Shown in pieces: positions 52,736 to 63,847 of a stretch of DNA of 64,000 nucleotides. The DNA lies in contig OZ287067.1 in NCBI GenBank assembly GCA_965645245.1, positions 1,860,001 through 1,924,000 of the forward strand, given 5' to 3'. Positions within the stretch are counted from its first letter, which is position 1; each line of letters begins with the position of its first letter. The stretch comes from Massalongia carnosa (taxonomy: Eukaryota). A program made the position numbers and the translations under genes. The notes beneath the pieces were generated by a model. That model did no database searches and was not told where the DNA came from. It saw only the letters and a program-made list of their open reading frames with translations.

Positions 52736-53003
52736 AAGCATGCACGCGCGTGACAAAATGGGCCGAACACCAAACTTTACTATGTTTGCAGCCTGATAAA
52801 AGATATCGGATTATATTATAAGCTTTGTAATTTTGTAAGTGCAGCTCGTTCGATATTCGATTTTAACCTTATGATATTTTATACTGAAGCGTGGTTATTT
52901 AAGAAAAATTTCCAAAGCAAGATATTTGAAAAATCTTTAGTGAAAATCGCCTATCAAGCGAGTTTTGGTGTTCGGCCATTTCTGTCACGCGCGTGGCACG
53001 GTA
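52736..53003. mobile_element. MITE with ~40-bp imperfect TIRs (probably Tc1/mariner-pogo type, TA flanks)
   Basis: CACGCGCGTGACAAAATGGGCCGAACACCAAA on the left and TTTTGGTGTTCGGCCATTTCTGTCACGCGCGTG on the right, with an AT-rich core. Confidence 0.78.
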
Positions 53004-53087
53004 GGGTATAGAGTACTATTGAACCTTTACTGTTGATGTCATGTTTAGTCAGCGAAAAGGGGTTTTTTTTTCAGACGTTGCCCGGTC

Positions 53088-53106
53088 AAGCCCCTTCGGG
53101 TTAGTC
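53088..53106 (+). repeat. 19-bp hairpin direct repeat, left copy
   Basis: AAGCCCCTTCGGGTTAGTC is identical to 63850-63868. Confidence 0.85.
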
Positions 53107-53680
53107 TTACAGAACGTTAAGCCATAATTATCGCCCGTGACACTTAGCGGCGTTTAAAATCCTAAATCCCGCGATTTTTTCTTGTCACGCCAAATAACCT
53201 TAGTAACCTGAAGTTGTAGTCTCGCGCAGCGAGAAAAAATTTTATTTTGAAGCAATTTAAACCGTCAAATAGAGCATCCTTCAACGAGTAGACCCGCGCC
53301 TGAATTGTCTGATTTGATGTGCTGTGAAGTGTAGGATCGCCGTGCAAAACTGACGCCCTGCTTGGCCCTGGTCGTTGCGAAGGTCGACATTTGCGCTTCG
53401 CAATCGAACCACAAAGGGGTTTTGCTAGAATTTTGAAACTGGGTTTGCTGAAAAGAGCTTCTTCTGAATAGAAGAAACATCTTACCCCGAGTAGAATTAA
53501 CGTAGCGCTGATGGCGCGATACGTGGTGCAGTTGCACGCCTCGTCACAAGATGTCCCACCCAGTCACAGAAACGAGAAGGAGGTACTACAGGAACATTAC
53601 GAGTGATCGCTTCTTAGTAGAAACGGTGTTACAGGCCTCCATGACTAGTACTCGTAGAGAGAAAGAGAGGTACCATTGGC

Positions 53681-56491
53681 CTATCTACGAAGCAGATCCT
53701 CTCCAGCGTCAATACGCTTAGAGATCTGATGTCCAGAGAGCCCCAAACTGTCAACTTCCCGCGCAATATCCCACGGATCCCTCCCCTGCTCATTCGCCTT
53801 CCCCTGAAGGTACCGACGGATCCGTCTCTTGACGTAGAACCGCTGCCTCAGGGCAGGAGTGTACCTCCACTTAGCCCCAAAGAGGCGGTCCAACTCGTCG
53901 AGAGATGCACGCTGGACCCCCTCCACCAACGTCCCCAACGCGAATTCCTCCAACACCGCCTCCGCCGAGGTCACGCCGCCGAGAATGGGCTCCGCCGGGC
54001 AGCCAGGAGGACGTTGAGGCGGCCCCTCTTGGGGGAGGGAGCCACAGGGCGCAGAGACCGTAGACGTCTCTCCGGGGACGGAAGTGAGGACGACAGAAGG
54101 TGTAGGAAGGAGAGAAGCGACTGCGTCGACGTACGAGGACGCCGACGCAGCAGGCTCTTCACCAACGGAGTGCGCCGCCGTCGCAAGAGCAGTCGCCTGC
54201 CCTCGCCAAGAAGCCTCGTCCAGCAGCCAGTCCCTCCGAACAGCCTCCACAGGAACCGTCAGAAAGGATCGAAGCAGCGTCGAGACCGTGGCCTGCAATT
54301 GTGAGAGCTGCGAACCCAGGACTCGAGCTATCTCCTGGGCATTTGCCGCCGGCAGCGCACTCAAGGTGGTCGTCAGCTGGCTCTGCCCGGAGAGCAACCT
54401 CTCCACAGCGTTGAGCGTGCGATCTTGCTTAATTGCAACACCGCTGACCTTGTTACTGACGCCATCAACGGAGTCAGTAACAAGAGGCAGCACGCCGTGG
54501 ATGGCCACGTGCAAAGGTTCCTTTTCTACAGCCTCCAACTCCCGTATCTTCGCCGCGAACGCAGGCCAAAGGGGATCTCTGAAGACTTGGTGTCTCCAGA
54601 GCGAAAGCTCAGGAAACTGAGGCTGTAGAAGCGCCGCGTCTTGCAGGAAGACACAACGCAGCCGCAGCAACATCTCCAGAACCTTCTTCCCTGCCTTATC
54701 CGCATCAGGAAAAAGACCGCCTTTGTACGCCGCCAGAGCGTCATCCACCCAAGGCCACACCTGCCGCTGCAGGGCCAGATCCGGTGAGTGTCCTCTTCTC
54801 AAAAAGTAACTCCCGGGGGAGTTGCCAAAGCCGGCGGCGCGACGCATGTAGACACGCGGCAGGCGAGTGAGGTAGTTAGTGGCCCAGACGCCACGTTCCC
54901 ATCCGCCTGCTCTCATGATCTGTAGTAGTTGATATAAGGGTAACGCTAGTAAGTATAAGGGGCCATGAATCGTAGAGTACTTACCTGGTCCGCGGGGACT
55001 TCCCACATGTCGGCCAGCCGTGACGAGGACTGCCGCATGGTGTGGACCGTCTTGGAGCTGTCGACGCCGACAGCATCCAAAGCCGGCTTGATCCATCGGG
55101 CCTGTGTTTTGTCGGAGATCTCCTCCTTAGATCGCGCCAGGCTCCCGGAGATGACCTTCCTTCGTGAAATACCACTAAGATCGATCCCGGAAGTCCGGCC
55201 GCTTCTCCAGGAGGAGGTCCTAGCACAAGACGAGCCAGTGGGCGAGGGCGCCGAGAGGACAAAGGACGACATCTCTGCTCCGCAAAGCACCATAGTAATG
55301 CTGGCGGCGCGAGTTGCCCCCGTCCGCCAGAGGAATGCTCTTGCCCTAGCCAATTCGAAGGATCAACGCAAGGCATTCGGACCCCTCGTTAGGGAGGTCG
55401 TAGGCGCAGAGGTCAGATAGCTCAGCCCTCCGCGTTGACTCCCCCCGCAGCATCATCGAATGCATTAGGAGGAAGTCGAGGCTAGTCCGCAGGAGGTGCC
55501 ACTCGCCGCCCGCCACGCCCTCCTCCCCCAAAACCTTGCCCCCGGCGAGCAGCATTGCCGAAAATTGAGCGGCCTGCTCAATCGTGTAGCCGTCGGTGAG
55601 GCCGTGGATCGCGCGATCCTCGAACGAGGCCCGTTTGAAAGCGCTCCAATCGATGCGTAAGCGCGTCATCAGGGCTTTGGTGGCTTTCCCTCTGGGATGG
55701 GGCACCACCAAATTCTTTTCGAGATGCTGGCCATCGAAGAGGGCGCAGAGGGCAGAGACGTAGCCCGATTCCACGCTATCGGGCGCCAGGGGCCGGGATA
55801 AAGGGTCGTCGGCTTGCTGCAAGACGAGTCAGTAAGCTACAAAAAGATGATTCTATCCCTGAATTCGAGTTCAGGGGCCGACTCACCGTCTCAACGAGCT
55901 CCTCGCCGTCGGAGAATTCCTCGAATTTTTCCACCTCCTCCAGCTCCTCTCCCTCTACCGCTGGCGAGGCTTCCACCGCCTCCATCGCCTTCCCCTTCCC
56001 CCTCTTCAACGCGCGGCGCTTAGCCTGCCGTTGGCGATCCTGATCCCGCCGCCTGGCCTGCGCTGCTGCGCCTGTGAACTTGGGACGTGGGACGAAGCGC
56101 AGGCGGAGGACGACCTCTTCGAGGAAGAGGAGCATCTTCCGCTCCCACACAAGGACGCCGTCAAGAAAATTGCGCCGTCGGCACCACTTCTGTAGGATGT
56201 TAGCGTAGGCCCAAAGTTGCAGGGCATACCTATCGTAGTCACCTCCCACAGATGCCAGCACCTGCGGTACGCCTTAAGGGTGTTGGCCCTCCGATCCTCC
56301 TCCCGCATCCCGCGGACGCGCCTCATGGTGGCGGCCATGGCGGCCTCGTTGTTGCCGTGGGTGGCATAGGCCTGAGACTCACGCTTGACGGCCTCGACAT
56401 CAACGTAAGCCTCAGGAGGAGGCCAAGAAAGAGGCGCCGCCGTCTCCGGATCTGCGACAGCGGGGCCTGCAGCGGAGGGGCCCGGGTCCAT
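53681..56491 (-). pseudogene. CryptonF-type tyrosine recombinase (Ndc10 domain II-like, probable C-terminal GCR1_C-like domain); three introns (56242-56190, 55886-55817, 54984-54920), premature stops and a frameshift
   Basis: NTLKAY, SGYVSALCAL, EDRA...DGYT, LRTSLDFLLMHSMMLRGES (catalytic R), CPLGALA, SKTVHTMR (HxxR), RAGGW and NYL (catalytic Y), MRRAAGF, VFLQDAALL and ELDRLFGAKWR. TAG at 55348-55346 and a frame change near 55160. Confidence 0.9.
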
Positions 56492-57068
56492 CGTGCGGCC
56501 GCCAAAGAGGGTATCCGTGGTATGTAGAACGCTCGTTGACCAGCAAGTCGCTCGCGGCGCAAAACGGGGACAGGCAGGCTTTTTGCAGTTCGACTGAATG
56601 GGTCGAGGAGAGAAAATCGTGGTATGGAGCTTGGTCACGGGCGATATTGTCCATACAGCGTGACGATTTTGCAGGGTCACGCCTATAAGTCGGTTTATAC
56701 CCCAAAGTCACAGGCGATAAGTCCACTTTTCGAAGGACCGCCAAGCCAGCATTTTTTACGCTAAATCTCAACCCCGCGGCCCCGAAAAAAAAATCGGCCT
56801 CGGATAAGCGATCTTGAGGGCTAGCTATGTGAAAATTCGCCGAAGTTGCCGTGAACTATAGATTTCGGAATTTTTGATTAATGGAAGTTCCTTCCTTCGG
56901 ATCCCCAAGTGGGGGAGGATGTACGAGCATGAAAAGGGGTGTACGACCACTGAAAGGATGGGAGGAATTAGTTATGGATTACGGGATTCTTTATACAAAT
57001 AATACATTAGTTGGACTTTTTAAGACCAGTTATTAGACCAGCTTGCCATGATATTATCCATTCGTCAT

Positions 57069-57146
57069 GATCGGTCCTCCTCCTTCTACACCATCGGTCC
57101 TCCTCCTTCTACACCATTGGTCCTCCTTCTACACCATCGGTCCTCA
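57069..57146. repeat. Short tandem repeat, ~20-23-bp unit CATCGGTCCTCCTCCTTCTACAC, about 3.5 copies
   Basis: Directly visible. Confidence 0.9.
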
Positions 57147-57229
57147 CCACGGAGACGCCAAAGGCCTCACCGTGGGGCGACCGTCAAACATATAGATTTG
57201 CTCCTATTTCTTCGCATCAAAACAATGCT

Positions 57230-58860
57230 AATTTAACGCGTTCACACGCGTCGCAGACGTACGTACGGAAGAGGATACGAAGGCCAACCGCCGGGGGGTA
57301 GAATGCGCGCGTCCCTGCACCATGCTTCTAAGGGTTCAAGTGCCTTCATGCAGTCATCAGCTGGAAGAAGATGTGGACCAAAGGAGCCGCATCATCCCCC
57401 ACCCGGGCACAGTCGACACGCGTTCTAGCTCCTGAGAGTTCAAGTCTCCCCATGCAGTCATCAGCTGGGATCAACAGAACGCGTAAAGGCACCGGGGCGA
57501 ATGCTGTCACCTCAAGAAAACTCCATCTCGGAGCAGAATAACAATATCCCATTTAATAGGCCTGGCCTGTTAAATAAAATCGAGGAAAACACAGAGTCAC
57601 AAAACACATAGTCATCAATCACACGTTGTACAAAGCACACAGTCACAAACATACAGTCACAAACACACAGTCAAAAACACACAGTCACAAAACACACAGT
57701 CACAAAAAACACAGTCACAAATCAATAACACGTCCCTGTGAAGGGGGTTCTGCGGGGGCTCGTTAAGACAGATCTGCACCCCGTTAATATCGGAGTACAT
57801 ATTTTTAGAGGTTCAAGTCCTTTCTAGCAGTCATCAGCTGAAAATAATGTATTTGGACACGGGCATGGTGTGGATTTGACACGGGTAGACCTCGATGGAT
57901 CACAAAACGAATGAAAAGAGTTCAGCGGAACTTCGTTAATATTGTTCTCGAAGACCTCGTTAATAAGATTTTCATAGACCTCGTTAACAACGTTCGGTCA
58001 TACTCTTAAAGGTTCAAGTCCTTTCATGCAGTCATCGGCTGAGAGCTAAAGACGTACGACACGGGTCAGCTATGTCTATCACACGGGTCTCCTTCGTCTA
58101 CAACACGGAGCCCTCCGGCTGAAAGAAATAAAACATATAGACACATAGTGTAGGGTTACACCCTACACGATACAAGGGATTTGGGTTATGAAAACCATCC
58201 GATTGATGGCTACCGTGAGCAACACGGCCCGAACCGGAGTCGTACCGGGGATGGTGGAGGCAACCTAGTCATCAAATAGGAAACCCTTGGGACAAGAAGA
58301 GGGCAATATACGAGGAACCCGTTAATTGATAACAGTCTAGGCCCTGAGCTAATAGACGAATTTCAAACGAGCACCCCTCCGAGTTGTCCTCGACTCGTTT
58401 TGGTTAGTAGGGACGGAAAATCGATACTATACTGCCTGGTCAGGAGCATAGTGGTCGAAATCCCTGCGAGACATGGTCGGTTCATAAACGGGAGACCTTT
58501 ATGAATAACGCGAAGTGGGCGTAAAAAACCCGTGAGGCGTGGTATGCAATGGCGGCCACCGTACGGAGACCGTCTGCATAGCCCGAGAGGACAGTATGCG
58601 CATGTCGGTATATATAGAGCAGGGAATGTCTATCTCGCTCGTAACGAGACCCCGTCGGTTCGCCGGCGCATGGGCTACGGCTAGACTCGCCCTTGATATA
58701 TGCTTAAGGAGTAAACTGGGTTTGACCTGGGCGAAAGGGACGTCGTTCACCCCAATCGTAGAATTCATCAATAGTCTTGGGCCGTAAAACGCACCAGTGA
58801 GATGAACGAAAACTGGGATAGAGACTTCACGAAGGAGATGTCAACTCTATTTTATCATTC
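57230..58860 (+). ncRNA. Putative large modular structured RNA of unknown family (boundaries approximate)
   Basis: Four covarying T-loop three-way junctions, two long rods rich in G-U pairs on the + strand, many GNRA/UUCG-capped hairpins, and no credible ORF. Folded by eye only; transcription not shown. Confidence 0.6.
57586..57723. repeat. AC-rich ~14-bp tandem repeat (AAAACACACAGTCAC), about 9 degenerate copies
   Basis: Directly visible. Confidence 0.9.
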
Positions 58861-58862
58861 TT

Positions 58863-61523
58863 AGCCCTTCTGGAACGAGCGTTGCGCTGTCGCTGTGGCG
58901 GAGACTCGGCGTCGAAGACGCGAGTGGACGAGGTGGAAGACAGAGGCAACGTGGCGCAGGTATCTCAAATCGGCGGATGAAAAGAAGAAGATCATCACCA
59001 AGGAGAAGAAGCTCGACTTCAGAAGAACCTTAGCAGAGATGACGTCTGCGTCCGAAGGCATATGGCGTCTTGCCCGATGGGCTCGTACGCGCAGTCACTT
59101 ACCGCGAGACATTCCCAAGGTGCCCGATCTGACGCACACGCTTGCGGACGGCACAGCAGTCACTGCGTCCACATTCGACGAAAAGACGTCTCTTCTCTCT
59201 GACATGTTCTTCCCCAATGCAACCGCGGCAGACCTCAGCGACACGACGACGTATCGCTACCCTCCCGCTGTCGCAGAAACGGAGTCTCTTATCACAGGCG
59301 AGGAGATAGAGGCAGCAATCAAGCGTTGTAAGCCGGACTCTGCTCCGGGCCCCGACGGAATACCGAATAGAATACTCAAGCTTCTGATCAAGTCGATACT
59401 GCCCACGTTGGTCCTTCTATTTCGCGCCTGCGCAGAGCAGGGGTATCACCCACTCTGCTTTCGCGAGGCTCACACTATTGCAATCAAGAAGCCGAACAAG
59501 CCGAACTACACTCTCGCTAAGGCCTATAGACCTATCGCGCTTCTGAATACGCTTGGGAAGGTCTTGGAATCGATCATAGCTAAACGCATCGCCGCTATTG
59601 CGGAGACCCACAATCTGCTTCCTGAGTCTCAGATGGGAGGATGACGACAAAGATCCTGTGAAACGGCGCTTGAACTCCTCACCGAACAGATACACACGGT
59701 GTGGAACATGGGGTCAGACAAAGTGGCCACGCTTTTGAGCATTGATGTGGCCGGTGCCTTTGATCACGTCTCGGCGGAGAGAATGCTGCACAATCTGCGC
59801 AAGAGAAAAATTCCTGAATGGATCGTAGCATGGGTCGGCAGCTTTTTACAGCAAAGAAGGTCCACACTGACAATCGGCGGTCAGACGTCTTCGATGCGCC
59901 TTGTTCATGCCGGTATACCGCAGGGGTCGCCAGTGTCGCCCATTCTCTACATTTTTTACAACGCAGATATTTTGGAGGAGCTAGAGCGATCTCGACTCAA
60001 AGTCACCGCGTTGGGGTTTATTGACGACATCAATATACTGGCATACGGCACCTCGACTGCGAGTAATTGTCGAGCTTTAGAACGTGCTCACGAGATGTGC
60101 GAGCTGTGGGCTAGACGTCATGGAGCGCACTTCGCGCCTGCTAAATACGAGCTCCTACATCTCGCCAGAAATGATCGTCGCTTCGACATGACGGCTGCCG
60201 TGTCCATAGGAGGCGTGGACAAGACGCCTTCGCCGTCGGTGCGAGTGCTTGGAATTCAGATCGACTCCAAGCTTAAATGGGGCCCTCATCTAAAGTTCAT
60301 ACAGGGCAAAATGGCTACACAGACCTTGGCATTATCCAGGCTTACGGCTTCTACGTGGGGAGCGTGCTTTACGAAGGCGAGACACGTTTATAGCGCCGTC
60401 GTGCAACCGGCGATTACCTTCGGCTCTACCGTCTGGCATTCGCCATATGGCCGTCCCGACGGCACGCAGAGGATCGACAAACAGCTCGGTGACATACAGC
60501 GAGAGTGTCTGCGAGTGATAAGCGGAGGATTTCGCGCTACTCCGCAAATCATCATCGAAGCCGAAACTCACGTTTCTCCAATTCAGCTGCATCTAGCTCA
60601 CTTGCAGGCGAAGGCACGACGACGTCTTAAAGAACATGAACACGATCAACGCATCTCCGCTTTCTGTGAGAAGATCAAGCGCAAGCTGACTGCCTCGCGT
60701 GGTAGACGACGGCGCGCCTTCAACGCTACGCCGGCTCAGCGTAAGCGTGACTGGTATACGAGGCAGATTGCTCGAGTCCGGCCTGCTGACATGATAGAGG
60801 ACTCTCCGACGGACAGAGGGCTAGCCAAGATCTTCAACAATCAGTGGAAGCAGACCTGGAGCGCGTATCAGGCGGCTCATCAGCGTCATCCCTGCGCTGC
60901 GCTTACTGAGGGTCTTTCGATAAAGAGACTGGGATTACATAAGAACTTCTGCAAATCCGAAAGCAGCCTCATCATTCAAATGCGTACTGAGCGTATTGGC
61001 TTGGCGGATTATCTCTTCTCTCGTCGAGTTCCCACGTTCGCTTCGCCGGCGTGTAGCTGTGGATGGGCACGCCAGACGCTCAAGCATGTGCTACTCAGCT
61101 GCCCCAGGTTTGTTAACGGCCGAAGCAACATGTGCAGAGACGCCGGAACGACGGATTATCGCCGCCTTCTGACCACCGAAAAGGGCTTACGAGCCTCCGC
61201 TCGCTGGCTTATGCGGACTAATCTACTGACACAGTTTTCGCTAGCTGTAGAGTGTCTTTCTTCCTCCCCCTAACTGTCGCGTAGTGATAGTCACAAACTC
61301 TAGTTATAACAGAGGCAGAAGGTAGTCTCTTGATACGCATGTCGTAGACGTGGCGCTGGCGAAACGTAGCATTCGCGAAGTGAGGTCGAGCGATCACGTG
61401 TAGGTATACAGATGAAGGTTTTTTCCCCTCGATGAGGGTTTTCCTTCTTTGAAACTTTGATAGCTTTTCTCGCATGGGTCGGCTGTAGCTGATGTCACAA
61501 CGAGTATGAATTTAATAATAATA
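58863..61523 (+). mobile_element. 5'-truncated Tad-like LINE (non-LTR retrotransposon) with (TAA)n tail
   Basis: ORF2 begins mid-gene (PFWNERC...). It contains APGPDGIPN, YRPIALLNTLGK, GIPQGSPVSP, FIDD and the C-terminal CSCG...HVLLSC. One in-frame TGA at 59642-59644; ORF ends at 61273. Tail TAATAATAATA. Confidence 0.93.
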
Positions 61524-63802
61524 CAGTCAAACCTTCCTATAACGATAGGGTTTGTCCACGCCGGCCAATCGTTATAGCCAGATTATCGTTATAGCCAGAA
61601 TATATTATTTATAAGTTAAACATAACGGTTATGTGTGATGATGAGATTCATAGACCTAAGAATCTATATAGCATGAAAATAAGTCTGAATAGACTGTTGC
61701 TGCAACTCCTGTGTGCCTCTGCCTCTGATATCCCGTCGATAACGTGTCAAACACCGCAAAACCTCGCTGTTACCGTTGTCTTGTTGCTCCTCGTAGAGAC
61801 AGTCTATTCAAAGCAGTAATAGCTTCTGCACTGCTCACTTTTGCCATCATCTCTTGCTCCTCATCTGTCTCATGGTCTCGTTCAATCAAAGGGTGACTAT
61901 AACTGTCCAGAATCTGTTCAAATATCTCCTCCTCGTTGTCTTCCACCACCTCATCCACGAGATCCAAGAAATGATCTATCTTCATCGCCTCTGTGATGTG
62001 ATTTTTGTCTTGTAGAGTCCGTATTGTAGCGTCCATCTGCTTGATCATCTCTCGCTGCTTGACATCATCTGCATCAGACTGCTCCTTCCACCCCAATTGT
62101 ATAGCCACACTTTCCGAAACAGGTCCGTACTTTGGACCCAAAACTTTGGATTTCAACCAGCAATTGGCAATTGTAGTAGAAGAAACGTCTTCTTGCCAAG
62201 CAGCTACACTCCATCGAAGAGCTTGTAGAATATGAATTGACTTTAACGGATCGCGATCCAAATCATATTCCGAACAGATGTAATTCAACCAATGTCGACG
62301 ATAATGAGCTTTAAAGGCCTTGATGATGCCTTGATCAAGAGGTTGACAGACGCTTGTGGCGTTGGCAGGTAAGAAAAGTACCTAAAAAGTTGATTAATCG
62401 ACGCTCTTGAAAATACACATCAGTCTAACGTACCTTGACGTTGTTCAGAGCAGTTTCATCTGCTTCTAAAAGCTTCAATCCGGCGTGATGGGATGAAAAC
62501 CCATCTACTAGAAGCACTACATTGCGATCTGCGGTCAAAGCGTTGAACCATAGAAGATACTCTTTGAATATCTTGCCAGTCATCCATGCTTTTTTGTTAT
62601 GACGCCAAGTCATCGGTAGGTTTTCTATCTTGACGCCAGATCGAGCAAAACAGCGAGGCTTTGCTGCCGTTCCAATAAACCAGGGATCCATCTTGTGACC
62701 CACGACATTACAACAAAGATTGATGGTGATTCTAGACTTATTCAACTTAACACCAGCTGAATCAGACACTGCCAAGGTACGATCCGGCGTCATTTTCCAG
62801 TATAGAGCTGATTCGTCCATGTTATAGATGTCTTCATTAGGATACGACTTTAGTTCTTCCCTGAGATCCACGAGTTCAAGCTCCACTGTTGCTTGATCTA
62901 CCGCAGCAGCTTCGCCATGACGAACTACTCTATGAATCTTATACCGCTTCTTGAAGCCGTCCAACCAGCCTGTTGGGAATTTGGGCTCCTCAACGCCTTG
63001 ATATTGCGGCATTCGAGCCCAGAATCTTTTGGCCATGGCCTTCAATATATCACCTGTTATGGTGGCATGCTTGAGCTCCTGTTTCTGCTGCCATTCGTAC
63101 AACGCCATCTCCAGATCTTCCCAATTTGCTGGCTGTCTCTTCTTTGATTGCGGATGAATGAGTCTTGAATCATCCAGATGATCATACTGATGAGACAAAC
63201 AGACAGAAACCGTGGATTGAGACAGCTTACGACCAAACTGATTTAGAAACCAGGCTATTAAGGAGTTGGAATTGGGCTTGGGATGATCCGCCTGATTATA
63301 GTGAGCTCGCAAGGCCTTTCTCTCAGCGTCAGTAATAGCTCGTCGTCGCTTGACGCAGGCGGAGGAGCTAATAGGTCTATTCAAGATGGACGACATGATG
63401 TTGTGAATACTCGGCGAATATCTTGGAAGTAGGAGGCTAGGTTATCAAATGGTAATACAACAAACGGGAACGACTTGGCTAATCAGCTTAACCAGAGCTT
63501 GATTTGTGACTGCTTATACTACTACCTCTAGTAAAGAGTGATTCTATGAAAATATAGCAGAATAGGCTCCCTATATATATACCTATCAAAAAACTACACT
63601 GCATTATTTAAGTAGGAAGTTCGGTCGAGGTGCAACCTGGCTTCTATGTATAACGATACCCTACAAAAATTTTGAGATTTACTAACGATATCGTAATAGG
63701 GAGATTATCGTTATTTTGCACCTAAAATTGCCGGATTTCTCCAACCAATCGTTGTGGAGCGATTATCGTTATAACCAAAATCGTTATAGGAAGGTTTGAC
63801 TG
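61524..63802 (-). mobile_element. pogo/Tc5 (Tigger/CENP-B-like) DNA transposon
   Basis: Perfect 23-bp TIR CAGTCAAACCTTCCTATAACGAT and TA TSD. Inserted in the LINE TAA tail. Confidence 0.96.
61664..63396 (-). pseudogene. DDE_1 transposase with Abp1/CENP-B-like HTH domains; intron 62433-62382; probable C-terminal frameshift near 61800
   Basis: GWLDGFKKRY, HGEA, IYNMDESALYW, KKAWMT, LLVDGFSSH and FLPANATSVCQPLDQGII. Confidence 0.88.
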
Positions 63803-63847
63803 TAATACAATAGAACTGCCTTAGTACTGCGTCGCTCTACGAGCTGT

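Follow-up and report, generated by a model that had tools for sequence, protein, structure and literature searches.

Chimeras of U6 small nuclear RNA (snRNA) and the long interspersed element (LINE) L1 are found in mammals and are attributed to template switching during target-primed reverse transcription. A fungal counterpart, MINE of Magnaporthe grisea, consists of a full-length, 1.1-kb non-coding sequence (WEIRD) followed by the LINE MGL, truncated at 28 different sites; MINE is reported to be flanked by 10–20-bp duplications, no solo WEIRD gene was found, the switch sites have the consensus GCC|A/U and template switching by the reverse transcriptase is invoked (PMC2104539). Its authors report no microhomology and no similarity to WEIRD in other genomes, describe no structure and suggest that WEIRD is a housekeeping RNA of unknown function (PMC2104539). 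Here we analyse a non-coding element of ~1.8 kb (positions 57070..58866, + strand) within a 64,000-nt stretch of DNA from Massalongia carnosa (contig OZ287067.1, positions 1,860,001 to 1,924,000; hereafter the window), which is eukaryotic and fungus-like in character. The element has a 5′ half made of short tandem repeats and 44-nt motifs and a 3′ conserved structured RNA domain (58143..58866, + strand; ~720 nt, about 30 helices) that is complete to the element 3′ end, where a 5′-truncated LINE follows.

The arrangement is like that of MINE—a full-length non-coding RNA (about 1–2 kb) on the 5′ side, a variably truncated LINE on the 3′ side, a flanking target-site duplication (here around two of three related copies examined), solo RNA copies that are absent or rare, a short switch-site preference and some junctions common to two copies (PMC2104539). 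The two differ in length (1.8–1.95 kb here, 1.1 kb for WEIRD) and in junction preference (RG|C here, GCC|A/U in MINE), and, whereas no relatives in other genomes and no structure were reported for WEIRD (PMC2104539), the RNA described here is represented in at least seven lineages and its fold is established by covariation. The joining of an intact RNA 3′ end to a same-strand, 5′-truncated LINE is also shared with the U6 snRNA–L1 chimeric pseudogenes of mammals (PMC4476161); U6, however, is only 107 nt long and comes from a known gene with a known housekeeping function, whereas the RNA here is 1.8 kb long and mostly or only observed in fused form.

Homologues were drawn from a scan of metagenome contigs with the invariant core of the 44-nt motif, which gave 40 loci among the matches listed. 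With 58043–58866 as the nhmmer query, 23 of these 40 listed loci aligned nearly end to end (scores of 135–219), and a profile built from 14 sequences detected the domain, whole or in part, in 39 of all 40, in agreement with a preliminary description of this DNA, made from its sequence alone, that had assigned the domain to the same transcript as the upstream repeat and motif region. That description had also taken the domain to be truncated by the LINE; the profile instead finds one full copy in the window (58143–58869, score 537) that fits the family to its last positions, and it is the LINE that is the 5′-truncated partner. The homologues represent seven lineages with inter-lineage identities of 57–67%, and about 130 bases of the domain are invariant, many of them in junctions (alignment A2, conservation map).

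Alignment A2 (MAFFT; the window and 13 homologues) was fitted to no structure. RNAalifold predicted 146 pairs on this alignment, 76 of them with compensatory changes, and a second run yielded 178 pairs in 30 helices. Paired cells made up 93.8%, compared with 86.1 ± 0.3% in shuffled controls (0 of 500 as high) and 38–44% when partners were slid; 85 pairs were altered on both sides (shuffled, 47.6 ± 4.1, 0 of 500; slid, 19–25), as were 272 individual cells (shuffled, 92.3, 0 of 500 as high; slid, 25–46). G.U cells outnumbered A.C cells (321 versus 77), which identifies the + strand as the folded strand, and the window copy retains 158 of 175 pairs. The covariance analysis that had been proposed as a check on the preliminary description thus finds two-sided change in 85 pairs, above both controls, and supports its claim that the + strand encodes a genuine structured RNA domain of large size: the comparison shows that RNA from this strand adopts an extensive fold that is phylogenetically conserved.

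The window sequence taken by itself gives a different result. All nine strings quoted in support of a dense multi-hairpin domain are present where they had been placed, yet none of seven stem/loop classes stood out from 300 dinucleotide shuffles (p = 0.06–0.43). GNRA/UUCG caps numbered 5 against an expected 2.16 ± 1.46 on stems of ≥2 bp (p = 0.064) and 1 against 0.57 on stems of ≥3 bp; the whole-region minimum free energy had z-scores of −1.84 (+ strand) and −2.96 (− strand; 20 shuffles each), and 200-nt windows starting at 58100–58700 ranged from −2.19 to +1.52 on the + strand. A density like that of shuffled sequence had been named beforehand as grounds for abandoning the claim, and this is what the single sequence displays; the verdict is reversed by the covariation among homologues. 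The idea that these hairpins arose by chance in intergenic or repeat DNA undergoing decay, with no selected RNA structure, would account for these non-significant statistics, but homologues as diverged as those above keep their pairs and change them on both sides far more often than shuffled or slid controls, which refutes it; we give it practically no weight.

The predicted fold begins with helix 1, an 8-bp hairpin (58149..58167) with five of its eight pairs changed on both sides, and continues into a first multi-branch subdomain (58173..58289, helices 2–8) that is closed by 58173–78/58284–89 and holds 58203–12/58266–75, 58213–27 and 58234–49. A lineage-variable insert (58290..58400) follows, closed by helix 9 (58290–96/58394–400; 5/7 pairs changed on both sides). 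The central core (58401..58815, helices 12–28) carries most of the invariant unpaired strings and is closed by the long-range helix 58401–05/58811–15. Beyond it lie a terminal hairpin pair (58818..58850), consisting of helices 29 (58818–23/58845–50) and 30 (58825–28/58834–37) with two-sided changes in 5/6 and 3/4 pairs, respectively, and an unpaired 16-nt 3′ tail (58851..58866) that ends in ...TTCTTAGCC at the junction with the LINE; all of these features are on the + strand. Judged against the 13 homologues, four of the nine hairpins proposed from the single sequence were confirmed—58148–58168 (5/8 pairs changed on both sides), 58213–58227 (6/7 pairs compensatory), 58421–58458 (7/14 compensatory) and 58481–58505, which comprises two helices with compensatory changes beneath an invariant GGGAGACC. 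Three were replaced by other pairings: TAGTCATCAA of the hairpin at 58264–58280 pairs with 58203–58212, CTCGTTT of that at 58365–58400 pairs with 58290–58296, and the bases of that at 58530–58537 belong to two other helices. The hairpin at 58583–58590 (C/Y-GAGA-G) is compatible with the alignment but shows one-sided change only, and that at 58653–58668 sits in a lineage-variable tip; in sum, five of the nine are wrong or unproven. Within the core, 58470–58479/58599–58606 and 58583–58590/58726–58732 represent alternative pairings.

Coding potential is absent from the domain in the 14 homologues (longest open frame, 113 amino acids; 4–33 stops in every frame), and its four longest frames in the window have no Pfam match. 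Rfam 15 gave no match at gathering score across the whole window, only noise at E ≤ 10 over 56800–59200 (best hit, 24.8 bits against a cut-off of 50) and no match at E ≤ 5 in nine homologous loci; the earlier view that this is not a group I or II intron, RNase P/MRP, signal recognition particle or telomerase RNA accordingly holds for the window and for those nine loci. The invariant 25-mer pattern of the domain had no match in viral and prokaryotic collections. Telomerase RNA had come into consideration because of the 1.8-kb size and an invariant GGTTAG, and was dropped: the telomere-repeat match is just 6 nt long and lies on the wrong strand to act as a template, and the element is multi-copy. 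The invariant AGCCYGAGAGGAC (58581–58595) appears to share CGAGAGGAC with the sarcin–ricin loop of large-subunit ribosomal RNA, although the flanking bulged-G bases differ, and AACGCGAAG may resemble a 16S ribosomal RNA string. A topical search of a limited literature collection returned no description of such an RNA beyond the MINE and mammalian U6–L1 work, and a search of a similarly limited collection by sequence strings returned unrelated primer matches only. The domain is an RNA family without an Rfam counterpart, located inside a known kind of composite retroelement.

The limits of the element were read from contigs of four public runs compared over 53000–62000. The non-coding stretch between a Crypton-type gene and the LINE frame (57000–58860) is found in seven public runs (51–83% of sampled words), which carry four organism labels and one lichen-metagenome label; no RNA run was among the 19 listed. 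Within this stretch, the block 57070/57133..58866/58867 behaves as a discrete unit, flanked on either side by unlike sequence. The 5′ boundary is at 57070 in two runs and at 57133 in one; an 8164-nt contig spans 57133–58867 with 21 differences and 5 gaps. In the best-sampled locus group, the element is ~1.95 kb long and has sharp ends, and it occupies at least 10 places with unrelated AT-rich left flanks; copies are 88–97% identical, with many of the differences being transitions. This group ends sharply at ...CCTTGG, and the window end (...TTCTTAGCC) is the same terminus. Across the 18 loci read, the family ends in ...TT[AG]G, of which the last G is invariant, and C follows in 15/18. Three different sequences follow 58866/7 in three public runs. 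Position 58866 is thereby shown to be the natural 3′ end of the element, and the domain in the window to be complete. At L004/L030/L028 the neighbouring gene is of the Zn2Cys6/Fungal_trans_2 type and the element 3′ end is slightly different (...AATTCTCG).

In the window, the element is followed on the same strand by a LINE (58865..61522) that begins just past the endonuclease region and ends, as read from the sequence, in a (TAA)n-like tail. Its reverse-transcriptase frame (58865–61273, + strand; Pfam RVT_1, 8.5e-22) aligns to the longer copy at locus L007 downstream of the APE domain of the latter, and an in-frame TGA (59642–59644) divides it into two halves (58865–59644 and 59645–61273), so this copy is dead irrespective of its 5′ truncation. 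In another public run (X3), a different LINE copy reaches further upstream than 58865, its added part being likewise LINE-like. A LINE directly follows the element end, on the same strand, in 17/20 distinct loci and is entered at no fewer than 13 different points. By tblastn, LINE open reading frame 2 (ORF2) starts directly after the end in 16 distinct loci, the window included, and is entered at a1 (window), a173, b66, b124, b152, b156, b219, b263, b348, b388 and b419/428, where a and b denote the two halves of the window LINE frame; two of these 16 loci are near-full LINE copies with an endonuclease domain. The seventeenth locus (L029) enters LINE ORF1, its flank being homologous (E = 8e-13) to the zinc-knuckle region (Pfam zf-CCHC) of ORF1 at L014. 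Entry lies inside ORF1, at different points, in the least-truncated copies (L007, L014 and L029), and all copies checked continue to a common LINE 3′ end. In the largest group, ten loci display nine different junctions, and no solo copy was observed.

Junction sites were examined in reference sequences, that is, in longer LINE copies of the same family. The base at −1 is G in 6/7 (AG five times, GG once) and the base at +1 is C in 5/7, so that the LINE junction bases mirror the ...GG(C) end of the element, equivalent to 1–3 nt of complementarity of the nascent complementary DNA (cDNA) to the 3′-terminal bases of the element RNA. Complementarity of this length is the expected footprint of a template-switching reverse transcriptase. 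Target-site duplications enclose the element together with its LINE at L001 (13 bp; 2/1000 shuffles) and at L027 (14 bp; 0/1000 shuffles). These two loci share a junction and lie at different sites, which indicates that one chimera was itself re-copied. Since a 5′-truncated LINE on the same strand abuts the exact 3′ terminus of the element, the whole is a composite, MINE-like retroelement.

We think it probable that the fold presents the element 3′ end to the LINE enzyme as a template-switch acceptor and that the resulting chimera integrates as a unit. A LINE reverse transcriptase copying LINE RNA would halt at a variable point and, aided by the short complementarity, move to an element RNA with a free 3′ end (...TTGGC); the whole element would then be copied, and the chimera would enter the genome in one piece, generating a target-site duplication. 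At the acceptor end, the conserved fold would most likely bind the LINE enzyme or particle and present the 3′ end, and it may also direct the processing by which that end is defined. Transcription signals through which some chimeras are re-copied may be supplied by the tandem repeats and hairpin motifs of the 5′ half.

Short interspersed elements (SINEs) are 100–500 nt long and have reverse transcription initiated through a 3′ end that imitates that of the LINE. The element resembles them in being non-coding, LINE-dependent and dispersed and in having a motif like the B box of RNA polymerase III promoters (GGTTCAAGTCC); it differs in lying on the 5′ side of the LINE and in depending on the LINE's own 3′ end, and no 3′ tail common to element and LINE was found. 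A tRNA-derived SINE was considered on account of the B-box-like motif and rejected given the 1.8-kb length, the lack of similarity to the LINE tail and the lack of a tRNA, none being detected in the window by ARAGORN. Structured RNAs are also known from LINEs themselves, as hepatitis delta virus (HDV)-like ribozymes at the 5′ ends of R2 and RTE elements and as folds of the R2 3′ untranslated region (UTR), which measure 70–250 nt and are part of the LINE transcript. Here, too, a conserved fold is tied to the life cycle of a non-LTR (long terminal repeat) retrotransposon, but it extends over ~720 nt in a separate RNA and has no Rfam match to an HDV-like or other ribozyme.

The preliminary description had proposed a catalytic or scaffold domain, and a scaffold or recognition module is the better-supported half of that proposal. 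The catalytic half would make the domain a ribozyme that cuts the transcript at its own 3′ end, or that ligates its 3′ hydroxyl to LINE RNA before reverse transcription. The size of the domain, its invariant unpaired bases, its invariant GAGA-capped hairpin and its long-range helices are typical of large ribozymes, and the invariant final G of ...TT[AG]G in the 18 loci read also counts in favour; nine junctions in ten loci, no solo copy being observed, imply a steady supply of free 3′ ends, which fold-directed cleavage would provide. Against this, no known ribozyme model matches even at E ≤ 5–10, the 3′ end is ragged by 0–4 nt (TTGG, TTGGC, TTAGCC and TTGGCCTA), and microhomology of 1–3 nt combined with target-site duplications is what template switching predicts. 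We therefore consider a ribozyme very unlikely. The notion of a terminal G as in group I introns was set aside for the same raggedness.

Several observations weigh against template switching onto a fold-presented 3′ end. The duplication at L022 is only 8 bp long and not significant (238/1000 shuffles), and none was found for the window copy, with the insertion of a pogo-type transposon after its LINE tail allowed for. The likeness to MINE is one of architecture and not of the WEIRD sequence (PMC2104539). The fold of the single sequence is not separable from shuffles, and the part that we assign to the fold in enzyme binding and template switching is inferred from position and conservation only. 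In addition, the donor LINE has A at −2 in 5/7 junctions where the element has G. This last mismatch means that the junction pattern is not wholly microhomology, and it keeps an alternative of the splicing type faintly alive, in which the element is the LINE's own 5′ UTR or promoter exon and the variable junctions arise by splicing into cryptic AG acceptors followed by retrotransposition. Spliced L1 copies do retrotranspose in humans, AG precedes 5/7 junctions in the reference LINE copies and element and LINE always share a strand, with the element on the 5′ side. Of the five AG sites, however, three are AAG or GAG and hence poor acceptors, and the other two junctions are GG and TA; no copy has GT or intron-like sequence after the element end, no unspliced parent was seen, and L007, L014 and L029 enter ORF1 at separate points rather than at a common LINE 5′ end. 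This makes splicing highly improbable in our judgement.

The remaining points against template switching concern the 3/20 loci that have no LINE after the element end. One of them (L017) offers only 123 nt of flank and another (L008) 1.1 kb of unassigned sequence; the third (L004/L030) retains 92% of pairs and adjoins a Zn2Cys6 transcription-factor gene, and its downstream flank shows no similarity to the LINE. The element at L004/L030/L028 may be a solo copy; should the LINE-free loci be solo genes, the RNA itself may play a part in the cell. It would then be a housekeeping non-coding RNA made from a single gene and abundant in the nucleus, its fold would serve the cell, and the LINE-fused copies would be accidental retro-pseudogenes, like the U6–L1 chimeras of mammals. 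Such a role is favoured by the strong purifying selection to which the pairs and about 130 invariant bases are subject, as well as by the possible solo copy beside a host transcription-factor gene, and the authors of the MINE report took this view of WEIRD (PMC2104539). The locus sample, moreover, was chosen through the 44-nt motif, and solo genes could have escaped it. Yet 17 of the 20 loci are LINE-fused, and the largest group shows its nine junctions in ten loci with no solo copy and many transitions of the kind left by repeat-induced point mutation; tandem repeats and motif copy number vary freely from lineage to lineage, an unusual trait in a housekeeping RNA, and Rfam 15 holds no such family. 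We regard a cellular RNA as unlikely, with a larger share of probability than we would give to either catalysis or splicing, and retain template switching onto the fold-presented 3′ end as the preferred account.

The 5′ half of the element consists largely of repeats. A 23-nt tandem repeat (3.4 copies; 57070..57145, + strand) marks the element 5′ end and a 15-nt tandem repeat (9.2 copies; 57586..57721, + strand) lies further in, both identified by Tandem Repeats Finder; the copy number of the latter is strain-variable, one contig skipping 103 nt (57609–57713) relative to other public runs. The 44-nt motif occurs four times on the + strand of the window element (57321..57363, 57428..57468, 57798..57841 and 57999..58042). 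It opens with a hairpin of 5 bp, the 7-nt loop of which (TTCAAGT; T-loop or B-box-like) is invariant, and continues with GCAGTCATCRGCTG; in the first copy, the same hairpin and loop are followed by GCAGTCATCAGCTG. Among 44 distinct instances of the hairpin, all five pairs are canonical in 33 and four of five in 11, and the pair types vary. The module is bordered by CTYGTTAA and ACACGGGC strings and is present in 1–5 copies per element, often in tandem with a spacing of 183 bp. In four lineages (L034, L007, L008 and the L024 group), an extra motif is located within the variable insert of the structured domain (A2 columns about 335–365), of which the window retains just the CGTTAAT part (58314–58364). 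CTGATGA on the minus strand of the motif was judged by eye as a possible hammerhead or C/D box and rejected, as there is no helix II and no Rfam match. In the 5′ half of the ~1.95-kb elements, part of the domain is present a second time in diverged form (profile positions about 91–492, scores of 59–68), at 2150–2602 in L001 and at the same place in L002, L015, L022, L027, L032 and L033, which suggests an old internal duplication.

The neighbouring sequence contains two further mobile elements. Upstream, a Crypton-like element (53220–56809, − strand; GC content ~0.6) carries a Crypton-type tyrosine-recombinase gene (53681–56707, − strand; Pfam NDC10_II, 7e-14; GCR1_C, 2.7e-4) with its frame in several pieces. 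In another public run, the Crypton is found on separate contigs with unlike flanks of its own at 53220 and 56809, and its nearness to the non-coding element is therefore coincidental. Downstream, a pogo/Tc5-type DNA transposon (61523–63803, − strand; Pfam DDE_1, HTH_Tnp_Tc5 and HTH_ABP1_N) is inserted directly after the (TAA)n tail of the LINE; its inverted ends of ~25 nt lie at about 61523 and 63803 with TA on both sides, and its transposase frame is split in two.

One further observation concerns the ends of the RNAs. The window element ends in ...TTAGCC and some relatives in ...TTGGCC(TA), and the Magnaporthe switch sites have GCC just upstream in the LINE (PMC2104539, Table 3). Should WEIRD likewise end in GCC, the consensus reported for MINE might reflect microhomology.

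RNA–LINE chimeras have been known from one fungus (MINE/WEIRD) and from mammals (U6–L1), and the RNA partner has been seen as a bystander or an orphan. The partner RNA described here has relatives in at least seven diverged lineages and many metagenomes, and its fold is one of the larger covariation-supported RNA folds outside Rfam, located exactly where the enzyme must switch. Annotators, who would otherwise mask this repeat as ‘unknown’, gain a model for it. Why one particular RNA becomes fused to LINEs is now a testable question, which can be put in three parts: does the fold attract the reverse transcriptase of the LINE, does it generate its own 3′ end, and is WEIRD a member of this family? 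As a tentative extension that we hold possible rather than likely, the element may represent a new class of LINE parasite or partner, the fold of which would capture the reverse transcriptase at the other end than SINEs do, present its own, possibly self-processed, 3′ terminus, join every LINE cDNA that ends prematurely and so give dead-on-arrival copies a new 5′ module; WEIRD would then be one member of a widespread fungal family.

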